This document shows positions 51,979 to 64,000 of a DNA stretch of 64,000 nucleotides, piece by piece. Source of the DNA: Candidatus Doudnabacteria bacterium (GTDB lineage Bacteria > Patescibacteriota > Doudnabacteria > UBA920); assembly GCA_031291995.1 (NCBI GenBank), contig JARLHZ010000034.1:14915-78914 (forward strand). The letters run 5' to 3'. Below the pieces are notes generated by a model. It was not told the origin of the DNA. It made no database searches and saw only the letters and a list, made by a program, of their open reading frames with translations. Position numbers and translations under genes: made by a program. The stretch's first letter is position 1. The number at the start of each line of letters is the position of its first letter.

Positions 51979-53514
51979 TCACATTGGGGTGTCGCCAAGT
52001 GGTAAGGCAGCGCCCTTTGGAGGCGCCATTCGCAGGTTCGAATCCTGCCACCCCAGCCAATCACTTAAAACGAGATTTTTCGGACTTTCCGCGAGCAGAG
52101 AAAATGGAGACTTGAATTGATATTGTTGAACAATCTGATTTTTAAGTTTCAGGTTCCAAAGTAATTTTTTTAGCAGTTCAAACTTTTCAACATCAGTAGA
52201 TTCTAAATACTCAAAAGACGCTATTGAGGCCTGTAAAAAGGTCTTTTTTGTTAGTTCCAAAGTGAATAAGGCCTCTTCAAGCGTTTGGGTCTTGGTGTTC
52301 AAAACTTGGGTCTGAATTAATTTTGTTTCGGCCTCTAGGTTTAAAATTTGGGGCTTTAGGGCATTTGCCATACTTGGGTCAGTAGAAATTACCTGCACAA
52401 GATTTGCTAGTCGCTCTTGTGTAGTTTTAAGCTTTTTAGCCAGTTCGTCTTTTTGAAAATTGATGTTGCCGGCTTGGGCGATAGTTTTTTCCTTTGCGGC
52501 ACGATAAGCAATTTCAATATCGTGTTCGTCAAACTTAAGTTCCTGAAAAGTTTTGGCTATGAGTTCATCAATGGCTTTATCCCTTAAATATTTTTTATGT
52601 TCCAAACAATTTCCCTTGCCATTGGTGCAATAATAATAAGCGTGGCCTTTTTTTGTTGAGGCGGTAAGCAGACAGCCACAGGAATGGCAAAACATAAAAC
52701 CACGGGCAGGAAAAAAATGTTTTTGTTTTTTGGAACGGGATTTACCGGATAACACATCCTGCACAGTATCAAATAAAATTTTGCTGATAATCGGCTGATG
52801 TATGCCTTGGTAAATTTGGCCGTTGCGGCGGATAACTCCGTAGTAAAATGGATTTTGTAAAATGTGATGAAATTGGGCTTTGCTGGGTTTAAGCCCGCCT
52901 TTTGTTCTAAAGCCGTTTTGGTAAGTGATATTATTTACATCCTTAAGCGAATAGCCGCCGGTAGCATAAAGTTCAAATGCTTGTTTAATGAATACAGATT
53001 TTATTGGGTCTATTTCTTTTTTCTTGGTCGCCAAATTATCCAAATAACCAATCGGTGCGGCTCCGGGCAACTCGCCTTTTTCTAGTTTAGTTTTGTTGCC
53101 GCGCTTAACATCCTGCGACAAGTTTCTGACAAACTGGTTAGCAGTGCCAAATTCCAAGGCTAAGTGCATAACATTGTCGCTGGGGTGGTGACTACCAAAA
53201 GGAGTTATGATTTCGGAAATTATGTTCTCTTGCAGGAGGCTGATAATTTCCCCGCTGTCCCGTAAGTTCCTTGCTATTCGGTCAAGTTTCCACGCCAAAA
53301 GCTTACAACCCTGATTAGCCTTAATATACAAAACCATTTTATTGAACTCCGGACGGCCAATGGTTTTAGCGGATTTACTTTCCTGAAATATTTTATCAAT
53401 GCTCAAATTTAACTTTGCGGCCAAAGCCTTTATTTCGCCGGCTTGAGATTCCAAAGACAAAGCCTGCCGGTCTTCGGCTTCACTGGATTTTCGTAAATAA
53501 ATAATTGTTTTCAT
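51979..53514 (-). CDS. large serine recombinase (resolvase catalytic domain, recombinase domain, Zn-ribbon)
   Basis: 511 aa. N-terminal IIYLRKSSEAEDRQ…SLESQ catalytic-Ser region. Zn ribbon CHSCGC…CTNGKGNC. Coiled-coil. Its 3' end reads through the 3' half of tRNA-Gln. Confidence 0.85.
   Translation of the reverse strand: MKTIIYLRKSSEAEDRQALSLESQAGEIKALAAKLNLSIDKIFQESKSAKTIGRPEFNKMVLYIKANQGCKLLAWKLDRIARNLRDSGEIISLLQENIISEIITPFGSHHPSDNVMHLALEFGTANQFVRNLSQDVKRGNKTKLEKGELPGAAPIGYLDNLATKKKEIDPIKSVFIKQAFELYATGGYSLKDVNNITYQNGFRTKGGLKPSKAQFHHILQNPFYYGVIRRNGQIYQGIHQPIISKILFDTVQDVLSGKSRSKKQKHFFPARGFMFCHSCGCLLTASTKKGHAYYYCTNGKGNCLEHKKYLRDKAIDELIAKTFQELKFDEHDIEIAYRAAKEKTIAQAGNINFQKDELAKKLKTTQERLANLVQVISTDPSMANALKPQILNLEAETKLIQTQVLNTKTQTLEEALFTLELTKKTFLQASIASFEYLESTDVEKFELLKKLLWNLKLKNQIVQQYQFKSPFSLLAESPKNLVLSDWLGWQDSNLRMAPPKGAALPLGDTPM
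51985..52059 (+). tRNA. tRNA-Gln (anticodon UUG)
   Basis: 75 nt cloverleaf. Acceptor TGGGGTG/CACCCCA with a U1:A72 pair. D-loop AAGTGGTAA. Anticodon loop CTTTGGA. T-loop TTCGAAT. Encoded CCA. Near-identical in outline to E. coli tRNA-Gln. Confidence 0.85.
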
Positions 53515-55776: not shown

Positions 55777-55973
55777 AGCAATTTCTTTAATTTTTGTTCC
55801 AACTTGGTCAAACAAGGCCAGCCAACAATTTTGGTTCCTACAGACCTACCAACCCTTGAACCAAAGTTACAAATCTTAAGAAAATAAGAGCATGGATTTT
55901 CGTCCATGCTCTTATTTTTTTCTACATTCAGTAAAAATATGCTAAAATAAGGTCATAATTTCAATAGAATTCT

Positions 55974-56969
55974 ATGAACAAAATATATTCGGAAAAACTA
56001 AAAGTTGGAGATGAAATTAGAATTATAGCGCCTTCAAGATCGCTCGGCATTATCTCAAATAATTTAAGAGAGATTGCCAACCGCAGGCTTAGGGATTTAG
56101 CGCTTAAAGTCAGTTTTGGCAGGCACGTTGAAGAAAAAGACGAGTTTGATTCTTCCGGTATAGAATCGCGCGTTGAGGATTTGCACGAAGCGTTTGCCGA
56201 CAAAAACATCAAGGCAATTTTTACCGTCATTGGCGGGTATAATTCCAACCAGTTATTGAAGCATATTGATTGGCAATTGCTCAAAAACAATCCAAAAATA
56301 CTTTGCGGTTATTCTGATATTACGATCTTGAATAATGCCATTTACGCCAAGACCGGTTTGGTTAGCTATTACGGCCCGCATTATTCCACTTTCGGGCAGG
56401 AAAAGCACTTTGACTACACTTTGGTTTACTGTAAAAAATGTTTGTTTTTTGACGAACCGTTTGAAATTAAGCCCAGCGAAAATTGGAGTGATGATTTATG
56501 GTTTAAAGATCAAAACAACCGCACCCTCATTCCTAACGAAGGCTGGCTGATAATAAACGAAGGCGAGGCTAACGGCACTGTCCTTGGAGGTAACCTTTGC
56601 ACTTTTAATTTGCTACAAGGGACGGAATTTTTTCCAGACCTAAACGGCAGTATTTTATGTTTGGAAGACGATGACTTGCCAAAAGAAAATTCCGCTGTGG
56701 AATTTGACCGCAACCTACAGTCCTTAATTCAGCAACCAAATTTTGGAAAAGTCCAAGGTTTGGTTATTGGCAGGTTTCAAAAAGCCAGTCAAATTACGAA
56801 CGAAAAGATAAAACAAATTATAAAATCAAAAAAAGAGTTGGCCAGCATGCCCATAATTGCCAATGTCGATTTTGGCCACACCGATCCCAAAATCACCCTT
56901 CCAATTGGCGGAGAAATTCAGATTAAAGCGGATTTTCAGAATCCCCAAATAAACATAGTCAAACACTAA
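55974..56969 (+). CDS. LD-carboxypeptidase / MccF-like peptidase (MEROPS S66 family)
   Basis: 331 aa. Nucleophile context CGYSDIT. Conserved His/Glu in the C-terminal half (DFGHTD). Length and architecture match LdcA/MccF. Confidence 0.8.
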   Translation: MNKIYSEKLKVGDEIRIIAPSRSLGIISNNLREIANRRLRDLALKVSFGRHVEEKDEFDSSGIESRVEDLHEAFADKNIKAIFTVIGGYNSNQLLKHIDWQLLKNNPKILCGYSDITILNNAIYAKTGLVSYYGPHYSTFGQEKHFDYTLVYCKKCLFFDEPFEIKPSENWSDDLWFKDQNNRTLIPNEGWLIINEGEANGTVLGGNLCTFNLLQGTEFFPDLNGSILCLEDDDLPKENSAVEFDRNLQSLIQQPNFGKVQGLVIGRFQKASQITNEKIKQIIKSKKELASMPIIANVDFGHTDPKITLPIGGEIQIKADFQNPQINIVKH

Positions 56970-57062
56970 AGTTATTATTCAGGCAAAAAAATAAGGGCAT
57001 GGACAAAAAATCCAAGCTCTTTTTTTAATGATAGTCCAAGTCTTTTAAATATATGACAATAG

Positions 57063-57090
57063 GGGTCGACGAGAGCCGGCCCCTATTTGG
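57063..57090. terminator. hairpin ATAGGGGtcgacgagagccggCCCCTAT between convergent genes
   Basis: 7 bp stem plus a T-run (CCCCTATTTGGTTT). Sits between the 56969 end of the + gene and the 57108 end of the - gene. Confidence 0.5.
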
Positions 57091-57107
57091 TTTGAGCGCC
57101 ATTGCGC

Positions 57108-57560
57108 TCAGTTGATGGTGACGGGACGCAGCTCGAGGGGTTCCTGTTCGTAGGGAACGAAGAACGCTTTGGATCCCTCCACAGCTACGCCCTTTCCGGA
57201 AGTCCCGTCCGCCAAGGCGAGACCGATGTTGCAGCGGCAGCCTAATCCTGGAGTGGTGATGAGTTCGTGATACTGCTGAAAGGCCTCGCTCCACCTCTCC
57301 AGGACGATATGGTGACCGTGGTCGTCAGTGTAGACGTTGACACCCTCTTCGTGCAGGAGGCGGAGAACGGCGTTCTCCACAACCTTGCCCGAGAAGGGCT
57401 TGTCCGCATTGATTACCAGGTGAAACAGGCGGCCGGTCATCCGGGCGCCGTTCATGATGATGGTTTCCGGGTTGCCGACAACGAACTTCGTATCCGGTTG
57501 GCCGAATCGTAAATGCATTGCCAGCGTTTCCGCAATCTGTCCTTGACGTTCCGTATACAT
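57108..57560 (-). CDS. hypothetical protein (GC-rich block)
   Basis: Strong RBS AAGGAG 5 nt before ATG (MYTERQGQ…); the track opens 15 codons earlier. 150 aa. No confident family. Confidence 0.45.
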   Translation of the reverse strand: MYTERQGQIAETLAMHLRFGQPDTKFVVGNPETIIMNGARMTGRLFHLVINADKPFSGKVVENAVLRLLHEEGVNVYTDDHGHHIVLERWSEAFQQYHELITTPGLGCRCNIGLALADGTSGKGVAVEGSKAFFVPYEQEPLELRPVTIN

Positions 57561-57586
57561 AACTGCTCCTTGGTGGGTTGTCTGAC

Positions 57587-57796
57587 TTATGCCGAGTGAA
57601 CGCAAGTGCCGTCGGAGTCGTAGGCATAAACTTCAATGCCAACGCCGCGGTTGCTGTGAGCGATGTCGTCTATTTCCCCTTGGCTTAACGGTGCGTTGTA
57701 GTCGCCAATAAAGAAATCTTCGCCATGCTCGTGTCCGATGAAACGGATCTTACCATCCGGAGCCTTGGGCTCCGTATCTGACTTTCGGAATTGCAT
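57587..57796 (-). CDS. hypothetical small acidic protein
   Basis: 69 aa ORF, GC-rich. Lies between the HisRS-like gene and the 57108-57560 gene. Confidence 0.35.
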   Translation of the reverse strand: MQFRKSDTEPKAPDGKIRFIGHEHGEDFFIGDYNAPLSQGEIDDIAHSNRGVGIEVYAYDSDGTCVHSA

Positions 57797-58001
57797 GATT
57801 CCTCCCCCTTTGCAAATTTATACCGCACGTTTCAAAACATATTTATAAACTCTGTAAACCGTAAAATAATGAAAATACTACTTATTGAGAAAATGGTCTT
57901 GGTTTGAAATAATTATATACCTATTCAATAAATAAAAACAACCTGAAAAAATCAACCCGGCGCGTCCTCCTTCGCGCCGGGCGTGGTTGAAGAACAACAA
58001 C

Positions 58002-59327
58002 TTAAACCTCCTGGAGCACCTGCCCCAGGGCATTCCGGACATCGGCCTCGAAAGCGGAGCGGCATTCGAGGGCGTGGGTGAGGGTGGCTTCTTTGCCGTT
58101 GACGCAGAACGCCAACTGGCATCCACGGAGTTTGGCCTGTTCTACCGCTCCCGCGGAGGAAAGCGGGTCGTAGCTCAGGTCAACGTTGATGCCAGCATTG
58201 CGAAGCTGCTGGGCGAATCGGAAAGCCATGGCTGTACTGTCGTTATTGCCGCAGTACGCTACCAGGACTTTATCCGGAAGGACAAGCTCGGATTTGAGCA
58301 TGTCCAATTCCTTCATGACTGCAAGGATGCGGTCGAGGCCGAAGGCCATGCCGACCGCCGGTTCAGGCGGAGCGCCGAAAGCGCCCACCAGGTTGTCGAA
58401 TCGGCCGCCGCCGAGCACCGCGCCGATTGGCACGCCGGGAATCACTCCTTCCAGAATGAAACCGGTGTAATAGTCGGCGCCGCGAGCCAACGTGAGGTCG
58501 ATTCTGACGTGAGAGAGCACTTCGTCGGGCAGATAAGAGAAAATCTTCCGGAGCTCAGCGATGCCGGTTAATCCGGCCGGCTGGTCGTGAAGATTGTCTT
58601 GAAGGTGTTGAAGCATGTCTTCGAGCGAGCCGGAAATAGCGATGACGCCCATAATGCTTTCTATCAGGGCGCTGCCAACCCGGCGGCGTTTCAGGTCTTC
58701 GCGGATCCCTTCCAGGCCTGCCTTGGTCACCTTGTCGGCGTAATCCATGGCGCGTTGCACCTTGAGGATGCCGTCTTTGCCGGTGATACCGGCGCGGGCA
58801 GCAATGGCCTGGATGATCATGCGATGATTGACGCGGATGACGAACTGCCGGAAACCGAGGTCACAAAGGCCGCGGCACGCTACGGATATAATATCGGCGT
58901 CGGCCAGAAGGCTGGAGGCGCCGATGATATCCCCATCGCATTGCATGAATTCGCGGAAGTGGCCTTTGTCCGGTTTGTCATCGCGGAACACATAGCCGAA
59001 CTGATACCGCTTGTAAGGGCGGGGCAGGTCGGGATGCGAACTGGCGACGCGAGCCAGCGGTACCGTTAGGTCGTAGCGGAGAACGAGGCGGTGTTTCTTG
59101 TTGTCTTCCAGGCGGAAGATGAGCTTCTCGCCCTCGCCGTGGTGGCCGTCAAATACGACCTCGTTCTCGATGGTGGGGGTATCGTGGGGAGTGAAACCGC
59201 TCTTCTCGTAGACAGAACGGAGAATACGGATAACGTAATCACGTACCCGCATTCCAAGCCCCAGCTTATCAGTAGTGCCCGGCGGGACGGCGTTCTTAAG
59301 CCGAGACCGGGTCTGTGGATGGCCCAT
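58002..59327 (-). CDS. histidyl-tRNA synthetase-like protein (class II aaRS core plus anticodon-binding-like C-domain), paralogue 1
   Basis: 441 aa. Motif 1 RYDLTVPLAR. Motif 3 GGRFDNLVGAFG. C-terminal alpha/beta domain (VLVAYCGNND…). Confidence 0.75.
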   Translation of the reverse strand: MGHPQTRSRLKNAVPPGTTDKLGLGMRVRDYVIRILRSVYEKSGFTPHDTPTIENEVVFDGHHGEGEKLIFRLEDNKKHRLVLRYDLTVPLARVASSHPDLPRPYKRYQFGYVFRDDKPDKGHFREFMQCDGDIIGASSLLADADIISVACRGLCDLGFRQFVIRVNHRMIIQAIAARAGITGKDGILKVQRAMDYADKVTKAGLEGIREDLKRRRVGSALIESIMGVIAISGSLEDMLQHLQDNLHDQPAGLTGIAELRKIFSYLPDEVLSHVRIDLTLARGADYYTGFILEGVIPGVPIGAVLGGGRFDNLVGAFGAPPEPAVGMAFGLDRILAVMKELDMLKSELVLPDKVLVAYCGNNDSTAMAFRFAQQLRNAGINVDLSYDPLSSAGAVEQAKLRGCQLAFCVNGKEATLTHALECRSAFEADVRNALGQVLQEV

Positions 59328-60663
59328 TGTTTGCGCTCTCCTTGGCGCGGATGAGGCTAATAGCCTCTTTGGTGCTCACGTTGCTGGTTTGTCCTGTGGA
59401 CATATCCTTGAGGGAAACATAGCCGCCGGCGACTTCGTCGTCGCCGATCACGATGATGAAAGGAATTCCCAGCCGGCTGGCGTAGGTTACCTTTTTTTTC
59501 AGCTTGGCATCATCGAAGTATACGGCCGTAGGTATACCGCCTTCGCGCAACTCGGTAGCTGCCTGCAAAGGAACGCGGAGATCGGAAGTTTGCGGAATGA
59601 CCAGCACTATGGCGGGCGTTGCGGATTTGGGAGTAATGATGCCCGCTTCGCGAAGCTGGTAAAACAGCCTGGTCAGGCCAATGGAAATTCCGACGCCGGG
59701 CAACTGTTTGTTGGTATAGTACCCAGCCAGGTCGTCGTAACGTCCGCCCGAACAGACACTGCCGATGCCGGGGTAGTCATTCAGTACCGTTTCGTACACG
59801 GTGCCCGTGTAATAGTCGAGGCCGCGGGCGATTGTCAGGTCAATAGCGTAATTCTGCCCGGGAACCCCAAGCGCCGAGACGTAGGAAATCACCTTCTCCA
59901 ATTCGTCGACGCCGGTACGGAAAGTGCCGTTGCTGATCTGCATCTGCTTGAGCTGGGAGAGGATGGCGGCCGTGTCGCCTGTCAATCCGATGAACGCAAG
60001 AACTTCGCGCGCCGCATCGGGTGGCACTCCTAGACCGGCCAACTCCTGCTGAACTGCTTCCTGCCCGGCTTTCTCCAGTCTGTCGACCGAACGGAGGATG
60101 TCCGCGGCCTGGCTGGCAAGTCCGAGCGATTCGAAGAAGCCGTTGAGGATCTTGCGATTGTTGATTTTGATGGTGAAGCGAGAAAAGCCGAGCGCCGCAA
60201 AGGTTGCGTAGATGACGCTGGGAATTTCCGCGTCGTTTAGCAAACTCAAAGCGCCGTCGCCGATGATGTCGATGTCGCACTGATAGAATTCCCGGAAACG
60301 GCCTCTCTGCGGCCGCTCTCCGCGGAACACTTTTCCGATGTGGTAGCGCCGGAAAGGAAACGCGAGGTCCGGATAGTGCTGCGCTACATAGCGAGCCAAC
60401 GGAACCGTGAGATCAAACCTCAAGGCCAAATCGCTGTCGCCCTTGGTGAAGCGGTAAATCTGCTTTTCGGTCTCACCGCCCGCCTTGGCCAAAAGCACTT
60501 CGGCCAATTCGATGACGGGGGTATCTAGCGGAATGAACCCGAACCGTTCATAGCTTTTCTGGATTACTCCCAACATGCCGTTGAACAGCATTTGGTCTGC
60601 CGGGAGCAGTTCCATAAAGCCGGAAAGGATCCGGGGGGTGACTTTACTTGGGTTGTTGTTCAT
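59296..60663 (-). CDS. hisS: histidyl-tRNA synthetase-like protein, paralogue 2 (HisS or HisZ-like)
   Basis: 455 aa. RFDLTVPLARY, GGRYDDLAGYY, and a C-terminal anticodon-binding-like domain. Its 3' end overlaps paralogue 1 by 32 nt. Confidence 0.75.
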   Translation of the reverse strand: MNNNPSKVTPRILSGFMELLPADQMLFNGMLGVIQKSYERFGFIPLDTPVIELAEVLLAKAGGETEKQIYRFTKGDSDLALRFDLTVPLARYVAQHYPDLAFPFRRYHIGKVFRGERPQRGRFREFYQCDIDIIGDGALSLLNDAEIPSVIYATFAALGFSRFTIKINNRKILNGFFESLGLASQAADILRSVDRLEKAGQEAVQQELAGLGVPPDAAREVLAFIGLTGDTAAILSQLKQMQISNGTFRTGVDELEKVISYVSALGVPGQNYAIDLTIARGLDYYTGTVYETVLNDYPGIGSVCSGGRYDDLAGYYTNKQLPGVGISIGLTRLFYQLREAGIITPKSATPAIVLVIPQTSDLRVPLQAATELREGGIPTAVYFDDAKLKKKVTYASRLGIPFIIVIGDDEVAGGYVSLKDMSTGQTSNVSTKEAISLIRAKESANNGPSTDPVSA

Positions 60664-60913
60664 AATATTTGATCAATCCTCCTTCATGGTACAAACTACG
60701 GAACGACTGGCTCCATAATTCTGCCAATCGATGGTAAAGAACAAACAAGCTCATCCTTATTGCACGGATAAACTTATCGTATTACTATAAATCAATTTAG
60801 CTCATATTGTCAAGGAGATTGGGTTTGGCCAGAGAAGCCCCTGACAAAATTTTTTAACTTGATTTTATTGGATAAATAATATATATAAAAGTAGAGTAAA
60901 CTGTAAAAAAAGA

Positions 60914-60948
60914 TATCCGGGCAGATCCTAAGAGGAACTGCCCGGAAT
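60914..60948. terminator. hairpin ATCCGGGCAG…CTGCCCGGAAT (repeat of the 19164-19190 hairpin)
   Basis: Same 8 bp GC stem with a longer loop. Lies between the lyase gene end and the hisS-like start on the - strand. Confidence 0.4.
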
Positions 60949-60975
60949 ATAAAACCTTTGCCAAACGGCTCGGGT

Positions 60976-62631
60976 CTAAGTGGTCAACGCGTTGCAGACT
61001 GACTGCAGCAGACTTCCGTCTGCCAGCATGCCCTCGACTGCGTCCAACTCGGCCTTGAGATACCGGTCGTTGAACCAGGCCTGGGCGCCCTTGTCCGTTT
61101 CCTTCTGGAATACGCCGCGGATATGGCCGTAAGCCTCGCCCGTTCCGAGCCCGAGCTGCTGGAGGTTTTCCGGCAGCAAATGCTGAGTGAGGGTGATCCC
61201 TTGCGACGCCATGAACAGTTCGGCGGCAAGCACGCGACGGATGATCGGCAGTATGGAGCGAACTTTGAGAGCGCTGTTCATTCCCATGCTCACCCAGTCT
61301 TCCTGGTCTGCCGAGGTCGTGATCGAATGAGTCGAGCAGGGATTGGCCAGAAGTGCAATCTGGTTTACCAAGGAGGCAACCCCATATTGCACGATCATCA
61401 GGCCGGTATTAGCCGTATTGGGACCGGCAAGATCCGCAGGTAAACCGTAGCTTAACCTGGGAGTAGTCAGAGCGAAACCCCGCCGGTCACTGGCGCCGGC
61501 AAGCGGCGTCAGGGCTATTGCGAGGTAATCCAGCGGCGCTGCCAAAGGCTGGCCGTGAAAATTGCCGCCTGAAATGGCTATGTATTGCGCGCCGTTCTCA
61601 CCATCCTCGAACACCAGAGGATTGTCGGTTGCCGAGTTGAGTTCGACTTCGAGAATCGACTCCAGATGAGAAAGGGCTTGGTATGCCGCCGCATGAATCT
61701 GGGGCGCACAGCGGAACGAGTAAGCGTCCTGAACGCGGGGAACCTGCTTGCCGTGGCTAAACTTCTTCTGTTCATCCGGAAAGGCTACGGATCTGGCTTC
61801 TTCCGTAATTCTCCTGGATCCTTCGGTGAACTTCCTGATGCGCGCCGCAGAATGAACCTGGCCGGGTAATGGCCTGGCTTCGTGGATGCGGGCATCGAAA
61901 GCGTTCTGCTCTCCGCGAATAGCCTCCAAAGACAAGGCCGTAGCGAGATCGGCGGTTTCCAAGAGGATCCAGCCGTCCACTACCGCAAGACACGCAATCG
62001 CCGCAATGAAGTTGGCGCCGTTTGTCAGTGCCATGGCTTCTTTGGCCGCAAGCGTGAGGGGTTTGAGGCCGTGGTTTTCAAGGGCTGTTCTGGCCGGTTG
62101 AATTTCGTCCGCCACGAACATTTGGCCTTCCTCGAGGCCGATTATGCCCGCGGACATGTGAGCCAAGGGAATTAGATCTCCCGAGGCGCCCACCGACCCG
62201 AACTCAGGGACTACCGGGGTAAGCCCCAAATTCAGGCAATCGCGAAGCCTTTCAATCAGGCAAGGTCGCACGCCGGAGTGACCCTTCAAAAAGTTGTTCA
62301 GCCGAACAAGCATGGCTGCTCGGGTGACTTCGGGTGGAAGCGGGTTCCCATAGCCGCAGCAATGGGCCGGGATATAACGCATCTGGTAATCGGACAGTTC
62401 GTCCGACGGCAACACTTGGTTCTTGCGAGAGCCACAGCCGGTATTGACACCGTACATGATGTCTCCACGGATAGCGGCGGCTTCGAGTCCTTGACGGAAA
62501 CGTTCGATTTTCGCAAACGTCTCGGGGTTGATCTGAACCTCGTGATGATGTCTGGCCACGGCTATAACCTGTTCAATGGTTAAGCTGTGACCGTCTACCT
62601 CCACGATTCTCTGCGTAAGCATGGATTTCAC
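60976..62631 (-). CDS. aromatic amino-acid ammonia-lyase/aminomutase family enzyme (HAL/PAL/TAL; MIO cofactor motif Ala-Ser-Gly)
   Basis: 551 aa. GSVGASGDLIPLAH contains the MIO-forming ASG triad. The fold is colinear with HutH. Substrate specificity is not assignable by eye. Confidence 0.85.
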   Translation of the reverse strand: MKSMLTQRIVEVDGHSLTIEQVIAVARHHHEVQINPETFAKIERFRQGLEAAAIRGDIMYGVNTGCGSRKNQVLPSDELSDYQMRYIPAHCCGYGNPLPPEVTRAAMLVRLNNFLKGHSGVRPCLIERLRDCLNLGLTPVVPEFGSVGASGDLIPLAHMSAGIIGLEEGQMFVADEIQPARTALENHGLKPLTLAAKEAMALTNGANFIAAIACLAVVDGWILLETADLATALSLEAIRGEQNAFDARIHEARPLPGQVHSAARIRKFTEGSRRITEEARSVAFPDEQKKFSHGKQVPRVQDAYSFRCAPQIHAAAYQALSHLESILEVELNSATDNPLVFEDGENGAQYIAISGGNFHGQPLAAPLDYLAIALTPLAGASDRRGFALTTPRLSYGLPADLAGPNTANTGLMIVQYGVASLVNQIALLANPCSTHSITTSADQEDWVSMGMNSALKVRSILPIIRRVLAAELFMASQGITLTQHLLPENLQQLGLGTGEAYGHIRGVFQKETDKGAQAWFNDRYLKAELDAVEGMLADGSLLQSVCNALTT

Positions 62632-62837
62632 TCCTAAACCGAGATTTCAACTGTACTGAGACTTAGAACAGACAACCCAAAAATAGGTGCGTTGATGTTA
62701 TTTTTCCTCCAAATTCAAGGCAAAACAAACAACTCAACCCTTTGAGCGGTCTGGTCTGTGCTATATGCATATACCTTTTACTGACCTCCTGTCAAGATCT
62801 TAATAAAAATTGTACTTTTAATTTCGGTTTAAAAATT

Positions 62838-63131
62838 TTATCTATTTAATAACAATTTGTAACCTCCGCTGCCATTCTTTAGCCGTCTATTAATTTTGGC
62901 TATTGTAACAGGGCTCATATTTGTAAGTTTGGTAATTTTTGAATAAGAAAATTTTTTGTTCAGCATCCGAGCTACTTTCCAACGCATACTGATCTCTTGA
63001 ATTTCTTTGGTTGTTAATACATCCGACAAAAACATTTTTGCCTCTTGAAAACGTTCAAGCGATAACAACGCATTAAAAAGATCTTTGACTTGTTGATTGT
63101 CCAATTTTTTTGAATTGGTATTTTTAAGCAT
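62838..63131 (-). CDS. YerC/YecD-family TrpR-like DNA-binding protein
   Basis: LFNALLSLE…ITKLTNMSPVTIAKINRRLKNGSGGY closely parallels Bacillus YerC. The ORF opens at 63182; internal Met 63131 gives about 98 aa. Confidence 0.75.
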   Translation of the reverse strand: MLKNTNSKKLDNQQVKDLFNALLSLERFQEAKMFLSDVLTTKEIQEISMRWKVARMLNKKFSYSKITKLTNMSPVTIAKINRRLKNGSGGYKLLLNR

Positions 63132-63238
63132 AAAACATTTCTTAATTAATTGAAGTATAGCTTTATTTATAACTATTTTCAACGACAGCCGTCCCAGAAC
63201 TAAAAAATAATGCCAACCTTAATGGTTGGCATTATTTT

Positions 63239-63838
63239 TTATCTGCGTTTATCGACTTCGTCAGTAATATCTTTAAAAGAGATATCTTTTTCTGCCAGTA
63301 AAACAAACAGGTGGTAAATTAAATCCACGGTTTCCTCAATTAACCTGGGTTTGGTTTGCTTTTGCGCTGCGTGTACGACTTCAAGCGCTTCCTCGGCCAC
63401 TTTTAGGGAAATTTTGTCCAAACCGGCTTTGAATAAAGAGGCTGTATAGGATTTTTTTGGCATCTTTAATTTTCGCTCCTGGATTACGCTGAACAACTCC
63501 AATAATTTGTTGGGGTCAAAATTTTCTTTAAAACAGGAATAAGTACCCGTATGGCACGTCGGACCTACCGGTTTGGCTTTAATTAGTATTGCGTCGTTAT
63601 CACAGTCTAACTTTATATCAACAAGGTTTAAGATGTTCTTGCTGGTTTCGCCTTTCATCCAGAGCCGTTGTTTGCTTCGGCTGTAAAACCAAACTTTTTT
63701 TGTCTTTAAAGTTTTGGCGAAGGATTCCTTATTCATATAACCCAGCATCAAAACAGCGGACGTGTCGGCATCTTGAATGACGGCTGGTACCAGACCTTGG
63801 CTTTTTGTCCAATTTATTTTTTTGATTAAATTTTTCAT
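63239..63838 (-). CDS. hisIE: bifunctional phosphoribosyl-AMP cyclohydrolase / phosphoribosyl-ATP pyrophosphatase
   Basis: 199 aa. HisI region GLVPAVIQD…WFYSRS…CHTG. HisE region EVVHAAQ…[10 protein letters not shown]. Confidence 0.85.
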
Positions 63839-64000
63839 AAGCGTATTGGTATGTTGTTAGTTGATAAATAATTTTTAACTTGGTTGACGCTAAATTGTCC
63901 ATAATGGAACAAGCTTGCCACCAATGCCGCGTCTGCCTTGCCCTCGGTAAAAGCCAATTTTAAATCTTCCAAAGATCCGGCGCCGCCTGATGCGATAACA
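63835..64000 (-). CDS. hisF: imidazole glycerol phosphate synthase cyclase subunit HisF (3' fragment, continues beyond window)
   Basis: The reverse translation ends …[45 protein letters not shown]…, a typical HisF C-terminus. Its TGA overlaps the hisIE ATG (ATGA). Confidence 0.6.

Follow-up and report, generated by a model that had tools for sequence, protein, structure and literature searches.

A G+C-rich block of genes lies at positions 57050-62700 of a 64,000-nucleotide (nt) stretch of the genome of a Candidatus Doudnabacteria bacterium, a member of the candidate phyla radiation (CPR); the whole of this stretch is called the window here. The block contains five open reading frames (ORFs), all on the minus strand and all recovered in the ORF list: a 4-methylideneimidazole-5-one (MIO)-type ammonia-lyase, two tandem proteins resembling histidyl-tRNA synthetase (HisRS), which we call HisRS2 and P1like, and two small proteins of 69 and 150 aa (Table 1). 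It adjoins a histidine biosynthesis (his) operon, and a gene for an S66 serine peptidase lies beyond its other end. A preliminary description of the locus had listed these five ORFs, with the 32-nt overlap of the two HisRS-like genes, and had proposed either a self-resistance or natural-product function or, as an alternative, a histidine-handling module acquired with the his genes. The gene content was as described, and the alternative turned out to be broadly right, except that neither of the two paralogues is HisZ. We read the block as a horizontally acquired histidine-handling module downstream of the his operon, with a probability of roughly 0.6; an antibiotic gene cluster is not supported.

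Table 1. Features of the G+C-rich block and its surroundings. Positions are those of the window, except for the last row, which is numbered on contig L011 of the same organism (see text). RBS, ribosome-binding site; GC3, G+C content at third codon positions.
Feature	Position	Strand	Remarks
MIO-type ammonia-lyase, histidine ammonia-lyase-like	60976..62622	-	548 aa from ATG 62622 with RBS
HisRS2, complete canonical histidyl-tRNA synthetase	59296..60663	-	455 aa; assigned by hisS profile and residues
P1like (paralogue 1)	58002..59327	-	441 aa; 32-nt overlap with HisRS2; conserved uncharacterised HisRS-paralogue family
Acidic protein, Dmd-like predicted fold	57587..57796	-	69 aa; own AT-rich promoter region and RBS
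ORFan	57108..57560	-	150 aa; co-transcribed with the 69-aa gene; GC3 0.71
S66 serine peptidase, MccF-like branch	55974..56969	+	Pfam S66 and S66C; outside the G+C-rich block
YerC/HisR-family TrpR-like regulator	62838..63182	-	TIGR02531 74.4 bits (cut-off 42.2); between hisIE and the lyase
hisIE	63239..63838	-	last gene of the low-GC his operon (~0.40 G+C) adjoining the block
Sigma-70-like promoter TTGACA-18-TATAGT	60784..60813	-	upstream of HisRS2; 11/12 matches, best promoter-like site of the region
Terminator-like hairpin and T-run	60916..60946	-	after the lyase stop; inverted repeat, 14-nt arms, 93% complementary, then TATCTTTTTTT
Intrinsic terminator	57955..57982	-	directly after P1like; 10-bp stem, 9 G-C pairs, T-run
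Large serine recombinase	51979-53514	-	511 aa; 3' end overlaps tRNA-Gln
tRNA-Gln	51985-52059	+	overlapped by the recombinase 3' end
Second large serine recombinase	L011:35-1381	same as the 511-aa recombinase	448 aa

The preliminary description had called the block more G+C-rich than its surroundings, and a windowed calculation bore this out. The G+C content is 0.551 in the block compared to 0.450 elsewhere in the window, and ~0.45 over the entire window; the 1-kb bins from 57 to 62 kb have values of 0.50-0.59, and those on either side 0.35-0.40. The step recurs in GC3, which is 0.66-0.71 for the block genes and 0.43-0.44 for the neighboring hisIE and S66 genes. The spacers of the block are AT-rich and host-like, as its coding regions are not. 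Because identical block junctions are found in four independent Logan assemblies and in one metagenome-assembled genome (MAG) at NCBI (Candidatus Doudnabacteria bacterium, 96-98% nucleotide identity), the block is no assembly artefact, and an assembly chimera was ruled out as the source of the GC step. Relative to the 96-98% identical MAG relative, substitutions at codon positions 1/2/3 numbered 7/7/33 in the lyase, 3/2/11 in HisRS2, 3/5/30 in P1like, and 2/2/8 in the 69-aa ORF. Their concentration on third positions indicates that these four genes are expressed and under purifying selection; the 150-aa ORF (0/3/5) carries too few differences to judge selection. The foreign origin that had been proposed for the block is supported by the GC/GC3 step, by the recombinase-bounded region in which the block lies, and by the fact that the lyase and the HisRS pair have their nearest relatives in other, higher-GC contexts. 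Direct repeats flanking the block were looked for as insertion scars, and none was convincing.

Judged by profiles and residues, HisRS2 is a bona fide HisRS. It matches the hisS model TIGR00442 over its full length with 393.8 bits (cut-off 286.75) and the HGTP_anticodon domain with 52 bits, and it is canonical throughout motif 2 (R113, E115, R116, Q118, R121, R123), HisA, HisB, and motif 3. It groups with the HisRS partners of P1like from other loci and with lyase-linked HisRS of CPR bacteria. Two motif assignments made earlier for the HisRS-like pair had to be revised: R[YF]DLTVPLAR, taken for motif 1, is the histidine-binding loop (LRPEGT in E. coli, residues 83/85), and GGR[YF]D, taken for motif 3, is the HisB peptide, motif 3 being GMAFGLDR or GISIGLTR with Arg311.

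P1like is a different case. Its hisS score of 282.8 bits narrowly misses the cut-off (by 4 bits), its score with the hisZ model TIGR00443 is 188.5 bits (cut-off 271.65), and its C-terminal match to HGTP_anticodon is marginal, at 22.6 bits against a cut-off of 21. Thus, the anticodon-binding domain attributed to both proteins in the preliminary description is strong in HisRS2 and marginal in P1like. The nearest solved structures are true HisRS (6NHI, 1e-59), with HisZ structures at 3e-22 or worse. Hundreds of relatives were found at 45-56% identity, and they share signatures that are absent from canonical HisRS: FxGHHGEGEK, FRDDxxDxGHFREFxQCDGD, ARGADYYTGFI, and GAVLGGGRY. In a neighbor-joining tree derived from p-distances, which included four genuine HisZ (three of them encoded directly upstream of hisG), E. 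coli HisRS, and the HisRS of a histidine decarboxylase (hdc) plasmid, P1like proteins were monophyletic in 100/100 bootstraps and HisZ in 94/100, with P1like and HisZ joined in only 9/100; the hdc-plasmid HisRS clustered with the canonical enzymes, outside the P1like family. The mean identity of P1like to the four HisZ proteins is 0.24. We conclude from these comparisons that P1like belongs to a distinct, constrained family, separate from HisZ.

The NCBI pipeline, in fact, names P1like 'ATP phosphoribosyltransferase regulatory subunit', and genes of the family generally carry either this label or 'histidine--tRNA ligase'; both names are probably wrong. The first would suit an ordinary his/hut regulatory locus, in which P1like serves as HisZ for a short-form HisG and the lyase is HutH. 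Such an arrangement is also suggested by the position of the block next to the his operon and by that operon itself, in which hisG is of the short form (206 aa) and whose locus lacks a classical hisZ. However, the hisZ score of P1like is below both the cut-off and its own hisS score, and P1like keeps R123, R259, and R311, while at least two of R121, R123, R259, and R311 are missing from every one of the four HisZ references. Furthermore, no hisG was found within 7-10 kb in the other P1like loci (38 genome loci and 36 metagenome loci), many of which come from lineages not expected to make histidine. In the present genome the hisZ position, which overlaps hisG by 4 nt, is occupied by a third HisRS gene (HisRS3, below), nine genes separate hisG from P1like, and the block differs in origin from the his operon (G+C 0.55 vs ~0.40). 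The preliminary description had named a HisZ-like paralogue, a short-form hisG, and a canonical HutH as the marks of such a locus; the short-form hisG is present, whereas neither paralogue is HisZ and the score of the lyase reaches neither HutH cut-off. We consider this explanation very unlikely.

The residues of P1like point to an enzyme with an intact adenylation site. Using verified E. coli HisRS numbering and 22 family members, we found positions 83, 85, 113, 123, 127, 131, 259, 262-264, and 311, which make up the entire histidine/ATP site, to be invariant (22/22). The motif-2 loop, in contrast, is changed throughout: E115D in 22/22, R116 to K, E, or D, Q118D in 21/22, and R121H in 22/22. 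A His in place of R121 is within the normal variation of motif 2 among class II synthetases, so catalysis by P1like is plausible. The net charge of the loop is -1 to -4 in P1like compared to +1 to +2 in the partner HisRS. In HisRS this loop discriminates the acceptor end of the tRNA (Guth and Francklyn 2007, as cited in PMC3064791). Among the 16 loci with both genes, the mean pairwise identity of the catalytic domain is nearly the same for P1like (0.579) and for the partner HisRS (0.585), whereas the C-terminal domain of P1like is ~10 residues shorter and less conserved (0.26 vs 0.38). Taken together, the identities and the loop charge indicate that the core of P1like is as constrained as that of an essential synthetase and that both of its tRNA-reading elements are altered or relaxed.

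These features bear on whether P1like could simply be a second functional tRNA-His synthetase, which might act as a reserve when histidine is scarce or the cell is stressed, or might serve a variant tRNA-His (one without G-1 or with another discriminator). The block would then be a lyase with two HisRS, as in the hdc islands. All adenylation residues and an anticodon-binding-like domain are kept, the hisS cut-off is missed by so little, extra HisRS genes beside histidine-consuming enzymes are known from hdc islands, and a divergent HisRS/tRNA-His pair with altered acceptor recognition occurs in alpha-proteobacteria (PMC3064791). Yet in that system, which lacks G-1, the anticodon gains importance rather than losing it (PMC3064791), while in P1like the motif-2 loop and the C-terminal domain are altered together. 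In addition, the extra HisRS of hdc type is canonical and lies outside the P1like family, and P1like has over long evolutionary times nearly always been additional to, and directly behind, a canonical HisRS. We regard a second tRNA-His synthetase as unlikely.

Family-specific peptide patterns were used to scan species-representative genomes, which gave 35 loci, and metagenomes, which gave ~50. P1like proteins were found in Saccharibacteria, Woesebacteria, Doudnabacteria, Babeliales, and MAGs of uncultured Alphaproteobacteria and Gammaproteobacteria, as well as in Bacillota (Clostridia and, among Bacilli, Lysinibacillus, Bacillus, and Paenibacillus) and Bacteroidota (Lutibacter, Muribaculaceae). 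No P1like gene was found on 72,556 plasmids, where the best match had 37% identity and all matches were canonical hisS. Of 36 metagenome loci that are 6 kb or longer, 24 have a canonical HisRS gene adjacent to P1like, as do about half of 38 genome loci; these neighborhood counts include related genomes and are thus phylogenetically non-independent, and the ORF calls in the fetched loci, which were crude, were backed by tblastn. The gap from HisRS to P1like has a median of 14 nt and is at most 30 nt in 23/28 loci, with overlaps in five, including the window (-32 nt). Pairwise identities of P1like and of the partner HisRS are correlated (Pearson 0.88, although Spearman is only 0.38) and their subtrees are similar, which suggests that the pair travels together. 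Following P1like in the 36 metagenome loci, an S66 peptidase gene is present in 13 and an M42 peptidase gene in 11, never both; a divergent S33 alpha/beta hydrolase occurs in 4, a lyase in 4, and an EamA transporter in 3. The 38 genome loci have the same pattern, plus HIT proteins in two. Other neighbors, namely UvrB (recognized by eye), MarR, metallo-beta-lactamase-fold, ankyrin, and ThiF-like proteins, were judged lineage-specific or unrelated.

Two further observations concern individual loci. The closest relative of P1like (80% identity) is encoded on contig L004, where the gene pair that it forms with HisRS (L004:2648-5264) has a G+C content of 0.55-0.58 in a background of 0.39-0.48 and is flanked by HIT, MarR, and M42 genes; the high G+C content suggests that the pair moved from a higher-GC donor into two different hosts. 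Loci L015 and L046 have two consecutive P1like matches each, which could reflect tandem duplication or a split or frameshifted gene.

The S66 gene of the window would complete a cassette of HisRS, P1like, and hydrolase. Its product is 44-47% identical to the S66 proteins downstream of P1like in 23 other loci. Against the PDB, the best matches were the stand-alone MccF-like proteins BA_5613/Lmo1638 (1e-116), followed by MccF (3e-48) and, at ~1e-18, the murein LD-carboxypeptidases (LdcA). The catalytic Ser118 of MccF is conserved, and the loop at the adenine-stacking Trp186 of MccF has a conserved Trp and an aromatic residue, although the alignment is gapped there and its register uncertain. MccF cleaves the amide bond of aminoacyl-nucleotides, whose N-P bond is the target of MccH, a member of the HIT family (PMC8323819). 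The agrocin-84 plasmid pAgK84 of Rhizobium rhizogenes K84 (CP000632.1) also carries an S66 gene with the annotation 'MccF-like', agnC5, whose product is 31% identical to the window S66 protein. Agrocin-84 is an inhibitor of leucyl-tRNA synthetase, and agnC5 is a further link of the S66 family to aminoacyl-nucleotide chemistry.

Given these relatives, it is conceivable that the cassette defends its host against a histidyl-adenylate mimic of the microcin C or agrocin kind, with P1like as an insensitive synthetase or a decoy and with MccF-like S66, HIT, GNAT, and EamA proteins destroying or exporting the toxin. S66/MccF, HIT/MccH, GNAT/MccE, and efflux do make up a known immunity set (PMC8323819), the window S66 resembles MccF more than LdcA and has retained an aromatic loop, and agnC5 is an S66 gene as well. 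Several points disagree with such a role. HIT and GNAT genes are near P1like in only a few loci; M42 and S33 aminopeptidases, the lyases, and amino-acid permeases do not suit resistance; a resistant synthetase would need intact tRNA recognition; and PADLOC had no match for any gene. A literature search found no natural histidyl-nucleotide antibiotic, and we know of none. We therefore think a defensive role improbable.

The lyase carries the MIO motif GSVGASGDL (Ala-Ser-Gly), as the preliminary description had stated, although its start is more likely ATG 62622, behind an RBS, than GTG 62631, which opens the longest ORF (60976-62631). It matches Pfam Lyase_aromatic with 538 bits. The two histidine ammonia-lyase (HAL) models give its best scores, both below their cut-offs (NF006871, 487.4 vs 524; TIGR01225, 466.9 vs 539). 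The Tyr-loop Tyr and the equivalents of Asn195, Gln277/Tyr280/Arg283, and Phe329 are kept, and the equivalents of HAL His83 and Glu414 are conserved in 119/119 aligned members of the subfamily. The selectivity dipeptide is Ala-His, not the His/Phe-Leu of tyrosine ammonia-lyase (TAL), phenylalanine ammonia-lyase (PAL), and the aminomutases; we take the roles of His83, Glu414, and this dipeptide (Ser-His in HAL) to be those of Pseudomonas putida HAL. Shared signatures are YGVNTGCGSRK, YIPAHC, an insertion of 15-20 aa before RVQDAYSFRC, and QEDW. Nearly all relatives at 43-74% identity are from Patescibacteria, and by these sequence features the lyase is a member of a Patescibacteria-specific HAL-like subfamily. 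Its substrate is most likely L-histidine or a very close analogue, which it would deaminate to urocanate.

Gene neighborhoods connect the lyase to the same partners. In each of its three closest contig-placed relatives, all from CPR bacteria, a full-length HisRS gene is present within a few genes; one of these loci is ordered lyase-HisR-HisRS, and another has an S66 gene nearby. Moreover, canonical HutH-type lyases adjoin P1like in loci L028, L038, L042, L086, L092, L093, and L105, which represent several lineages unrelated to one another, with two amino-acid permeases besides in L028 and L093. Because two different HAL lineages are found beside the same genes, histidine appears to be the shared substrate.

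The preliminary description had instead favored a natural-product or self-resistance cluster, with an MIO aminomutase making a beta-amino acid, an aminoacyl-tRNA synthetase (aaRS)-like protein loading it, and the additional HisRS shielding the producing cell. The block is foreign, two of its genes are of unknown function, and both aaRS duplicates and MIO enzymes are known from biosynthetic clusters (PMC8323819). Nevertheless, no biosynthetic genes accompany the pair: nonribosomal peptide synthetase, polyketide synthase, carrier protein, tailoring enzyme, and exporter genes are all absent from the block and its flanks. The lyase scores far better as HAL (487 bits) than as tyrosine aminomutase (330), phenylalanine aminomutase (289), TAL (280), or PAL (253), its selectivity residues being of HAL type. 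Finally, the same gene trio recurs in CPR bacteria and Babeliales beside permeases and peptidases. Both the aminomutase pathway and the self-resistance duplicate thus seem highly improbable.

Contig L011, from the same organism, runs past the window end at 64000 and gives the wider context. Along the direction of transcription, its order is the second large serine recombinase, a YerC/HisR-type regulator, HisRS3, short-form hisG, hisD-C-B-H-AF-IE, a second HisR-type gene, the G+C-rich block, and the S66 gene. The two recombinases bracket ~21 kb with the S66 gene, the block, and the entire his operon, and the region looks like an integrative island that provides a CPR bacterium with histidine biosynthesis. 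HisRS3 and hisG (L011:1858-3719) are ~9 kb past the window end. HisRS3 (414 aa, ~42% G+C) scores 389 bits with the hisS hidden Markov model, has a good anticodon-binding domain, and is apparently catalytically intact. Its gene overlaps hisG by 4 nt and sits where hisZ sits in three of the four fetched reference genomes; HisRS3 and HisZ were grouped in 0/100 bootstraps. HisRS3 may be a bifunctional HisRS/HisZ, or the short HisG may work without HisZ here. Within the his operon, hisA and hisF are apparently fused in one 491-aa gene with two His_biosynth domains (L011:7691-9166).

YerC and HisR are the same protein, a repressor that depends on histidine and has been validated in vitro (PMC9413887). 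When we searched for the HisR operator with the Firmicutes consensus (cacTTTAnnnnnnTAAAgtg, at most 3 mismatches), it was absent from the locus and window-wide counts were at chance level, although the CPR motif may differ. The YerC/HisR-like gene between hisIE and the lyase is missing in the 96-98% identical relative L012, in which hisIE is followed directly by the lyase; compared to that relative, window positions 62809-63234 are a recent indel, exactly where low-GC meets high-GC DNA. The homology to L012 ends at about window position 55789, just past the S66 gene.

The block consists of three transcription units: the lyase; HisRS2 with P1like, the latter coupled to it in translation; and the 69-aa and 150-aa ORFs, which follow an AT-rich spacer and have an RBS each. 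The hairpin after the lyase was not flagged by a simple terminator scan. Between the near-consensus promoter and the start codon of HisRS2 there is a leader of ~120 nt (60664-60783, minus strand), which has no Rfam match; Rfam at gathering thresholds, applied to the window and 11 related loci for T-boxes or other RNA regulators, returned tRNAs only.

The two small ORFs were found in no other P1like locus. The 69-aa protein belongs to a rare family with members of 62-73 aa. Its predicted fold (predicted local distance difference test, pLDDT, 85) has good matches only to the phage antitoxin Dmd, with two programs and two Dmd proteins, and small anti-CRISPR proteins rank next. By sequence profile, no homology to Dmd was found, and there was no match in the PDB, PHROGs, or PADLOC. 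The sole homologue of the 150-aa ORF is its own 97% cluster; it has no Pfam, NCBIfam, PHROG, or PADLOC match, and its AlphaFold2 model is unusable (pLDDT 46). No toxin partner of RnlA/LsoA type was recognized for the 69-aa protein, the neighboring 150-aa ORF having no recognizable domain. We speculate that the two ORFs might be a separate insertion between P1like and its usual S66 partner, an inhibitor/toxin-like pair unrelated to histidine. For anti-phage defense more broadly, PADLOC had no match among nine proteins.

The histidine-handling module that we favor is supported by HisRS2, which exceeds the hisS cut-off, by the HAL-type residues of the lyase, by the HisR-type regulator and the complete his operon alongside, and by the recurring linkage of lyases to HisRS or P1like genes elsewhere. 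Its enzymes might work as follows. The lyase would convert L-histidine, or a very close analogue, to urocanate. Because it keeps the full histidine- and ATP-binding site, P1like most likely still forms histidyl-adenylate (His-AMP); because its motif-2 loop has turned from basic to acidic and its anticodon-binding domain is relaxed, it is probably no longer an ordinary tRNA-His synthetase. The activated histidine would be passed to a non-canonical acceptor, or His-AMP would be released or held. Gene neighborhoods suggest that the partner hydrolase, which nearly always comes after P1like and is here the S66 peptidase, would act on the histidyl-X or aminoacyl-nucleotide product by cleaving it, or else provide histidine. 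This proposal for P1like and its partner draws on the intact adenylation site, the inverted motif-2 loop with the relaxed C-terminal domain, and the three unrelated hydrolases that occupy one downstream slot; we hold it tentatively, at a little less than an even chance.

Several observations weigh against the histidine-handling module. All of the enzymatic activities, and their functional coupling, are deduced from sequence. P1like retains an anticodon-binding-like domain (22.6 bits) and its His at R121 is normal among class II synthetases, and it could still charge tRNA. In Bacillota, P1like is accompanied by an EamA transporter only, with no HisRS or hydrolase nearby. The S66 gene of the window, with its host-like GC, lies on the opposite strand and two inserted ORFs away from P1like, which weakens the case for co-regulation here. 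The lyase is below both HutH cut-offs and its subfamily has a changed Tyr loop (TGFG to TGCGSRK), and its substrate might be something other than free histidine. Urocanase (hutU) and imidazolonepropionase (hutI) genes were found neither in the scanned window ORFs nor in loci L028, L038, L042, and L060-L063, which makes a catabolic purpose of the lyases less certain; the search did not extend to the whole genome, and further hisS, hisZ, or hut genes may lie elsewhere in it.

A bolder combination, which we consider rather doubtful, is that P1like is a tRNA-independent histidine-adenylating ligase, a new aaRS-derived class, and that HisRS3 is a bifunctional HisRS/HisZ. If so, the product of P1like would be a histidyl conjugate or histidyl-nucleotide with a role as a storage, signaling, or antagonistic molecule, and the interchangeable S66/M42/S33 hydrolase would turn this product over or give immunity. 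HisRS3, whose translation is coupled to that of short-form hisG, would represent a still-living intermediate on the way to HisZ.

Apart from that combination, the locus is of interest in several respects. A CPR bacterium seems to have acquired a complete his operon and a histidine-handling module on a recombinase-bounded island, which also offers a candidate HisRS/HisZ intermediate in HisRS3. HisRS, its paralogue, and an exopeptidase-type hydrolase form a conserved three-gene cassette, and the P1like family is concentrated in bacteria with reduced genomes that depend on hosts or partners (Saccharibacteria, other CPR phyla, and Babeliales). When the literature was searched for an already described HisRS-like family of bacteria, only GCN2 and HisZ came up, and HisZ is also the one HisRS-derived paralogue listed in a 2022 review on the duplication of aaRS (PMC9437257). 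Our sequence comparisons point to P1like as a second, widespread HisRS-derived family besides HisZ. Its proteins are small and soluble, and the hypotheses are directly testable.

How P1like relates to known systems can be stated in terms of what is shared and what has changed. With HisS (TIGR00442; 6NHI, 3NET, human HARS), of which HisRS2 and HisRS3 are full members, P1like shares the fold, the domain order, and the histidine/ATP contacts. It differs in forming a separate clade with E115D, Q118D, R121H, the loss of R116, and the FxGHHGEGEK signature; its motif-2 loop is acidic, and its C-terminal domain is shorter and evolves fast. In every case P1like is an additional copy, most often located right after a canonical HisRS. 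Like HisZ, the short-form ATP phosphoribosyltransferase subunit, P1like is a HisRS paralogue with a presumably non-translational role, and its host has a short-form HisG. True HisZ, however, lacks catalytic arginines, forms its own clade (94/100), and is encoded directly upstream of hisG in three of four references, whereas P1like keeps the catalytic site and has no linkage to hisG outside this genome. Another parallel is offered by the tRNA-independent aaRS paralogues, such as AsnA, PoxA/EpmA, and the amino acid:carrier-protein ligases (PMC9437257), in which the aaRS core still adenylates an amino acid, tRNA recognition has been lost or altered, and the acceptor is a different one, as we propose for P1like; P1like differs from these in retaining its C-terminal domain and in its acceptor being hypothetical.

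Its neighbors compare as follows. The lyase shares the MIO motif, catalytic residues, and His83/Glu414 equivalents with HutH (TIGR01225/PRK09367; P. putida HAL, 1B8F), but it is below the HutH cut-offs, has the TGCGSRK Tyr loop, YIPAHC rather than LIRSHA, the 15-20 aa insertion, and QEDW, and is linked to HisRS without hutU/hutI neighbors. The S66 protein of the window and all of the cassette-linked ones are close to the stand-alone MccF-like proteins BA_5613 and Lmo1638 and more similar to MccF than to LdcA, with the catalytic Ser and an aromatic loop conserved, although the match of its Trp to Trp186 of MccF is uncertain and there are no mcc genes nearby. For the locus as a whole, the closest known arrangement is the hdc island of lactic acid bacteria, a mobile hdcP-hdcA-hdcB-hisS locus, also known from the pHDC plasmid, with peptidases and transporters, in which the extra HisRS is explained as keeping tRNA-His charged when the histidine pool is being drained (PMC4122935, PMC5313534). 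Both combine mobility, a histidine-consuming enzyme, an extra HisRS, peptidases, and transporters. They differ in that an MIO lyase here takes the place of the pyruvoyl decarboxylase, there is no T-box, and the hdc islands have no equivalent of P1like.

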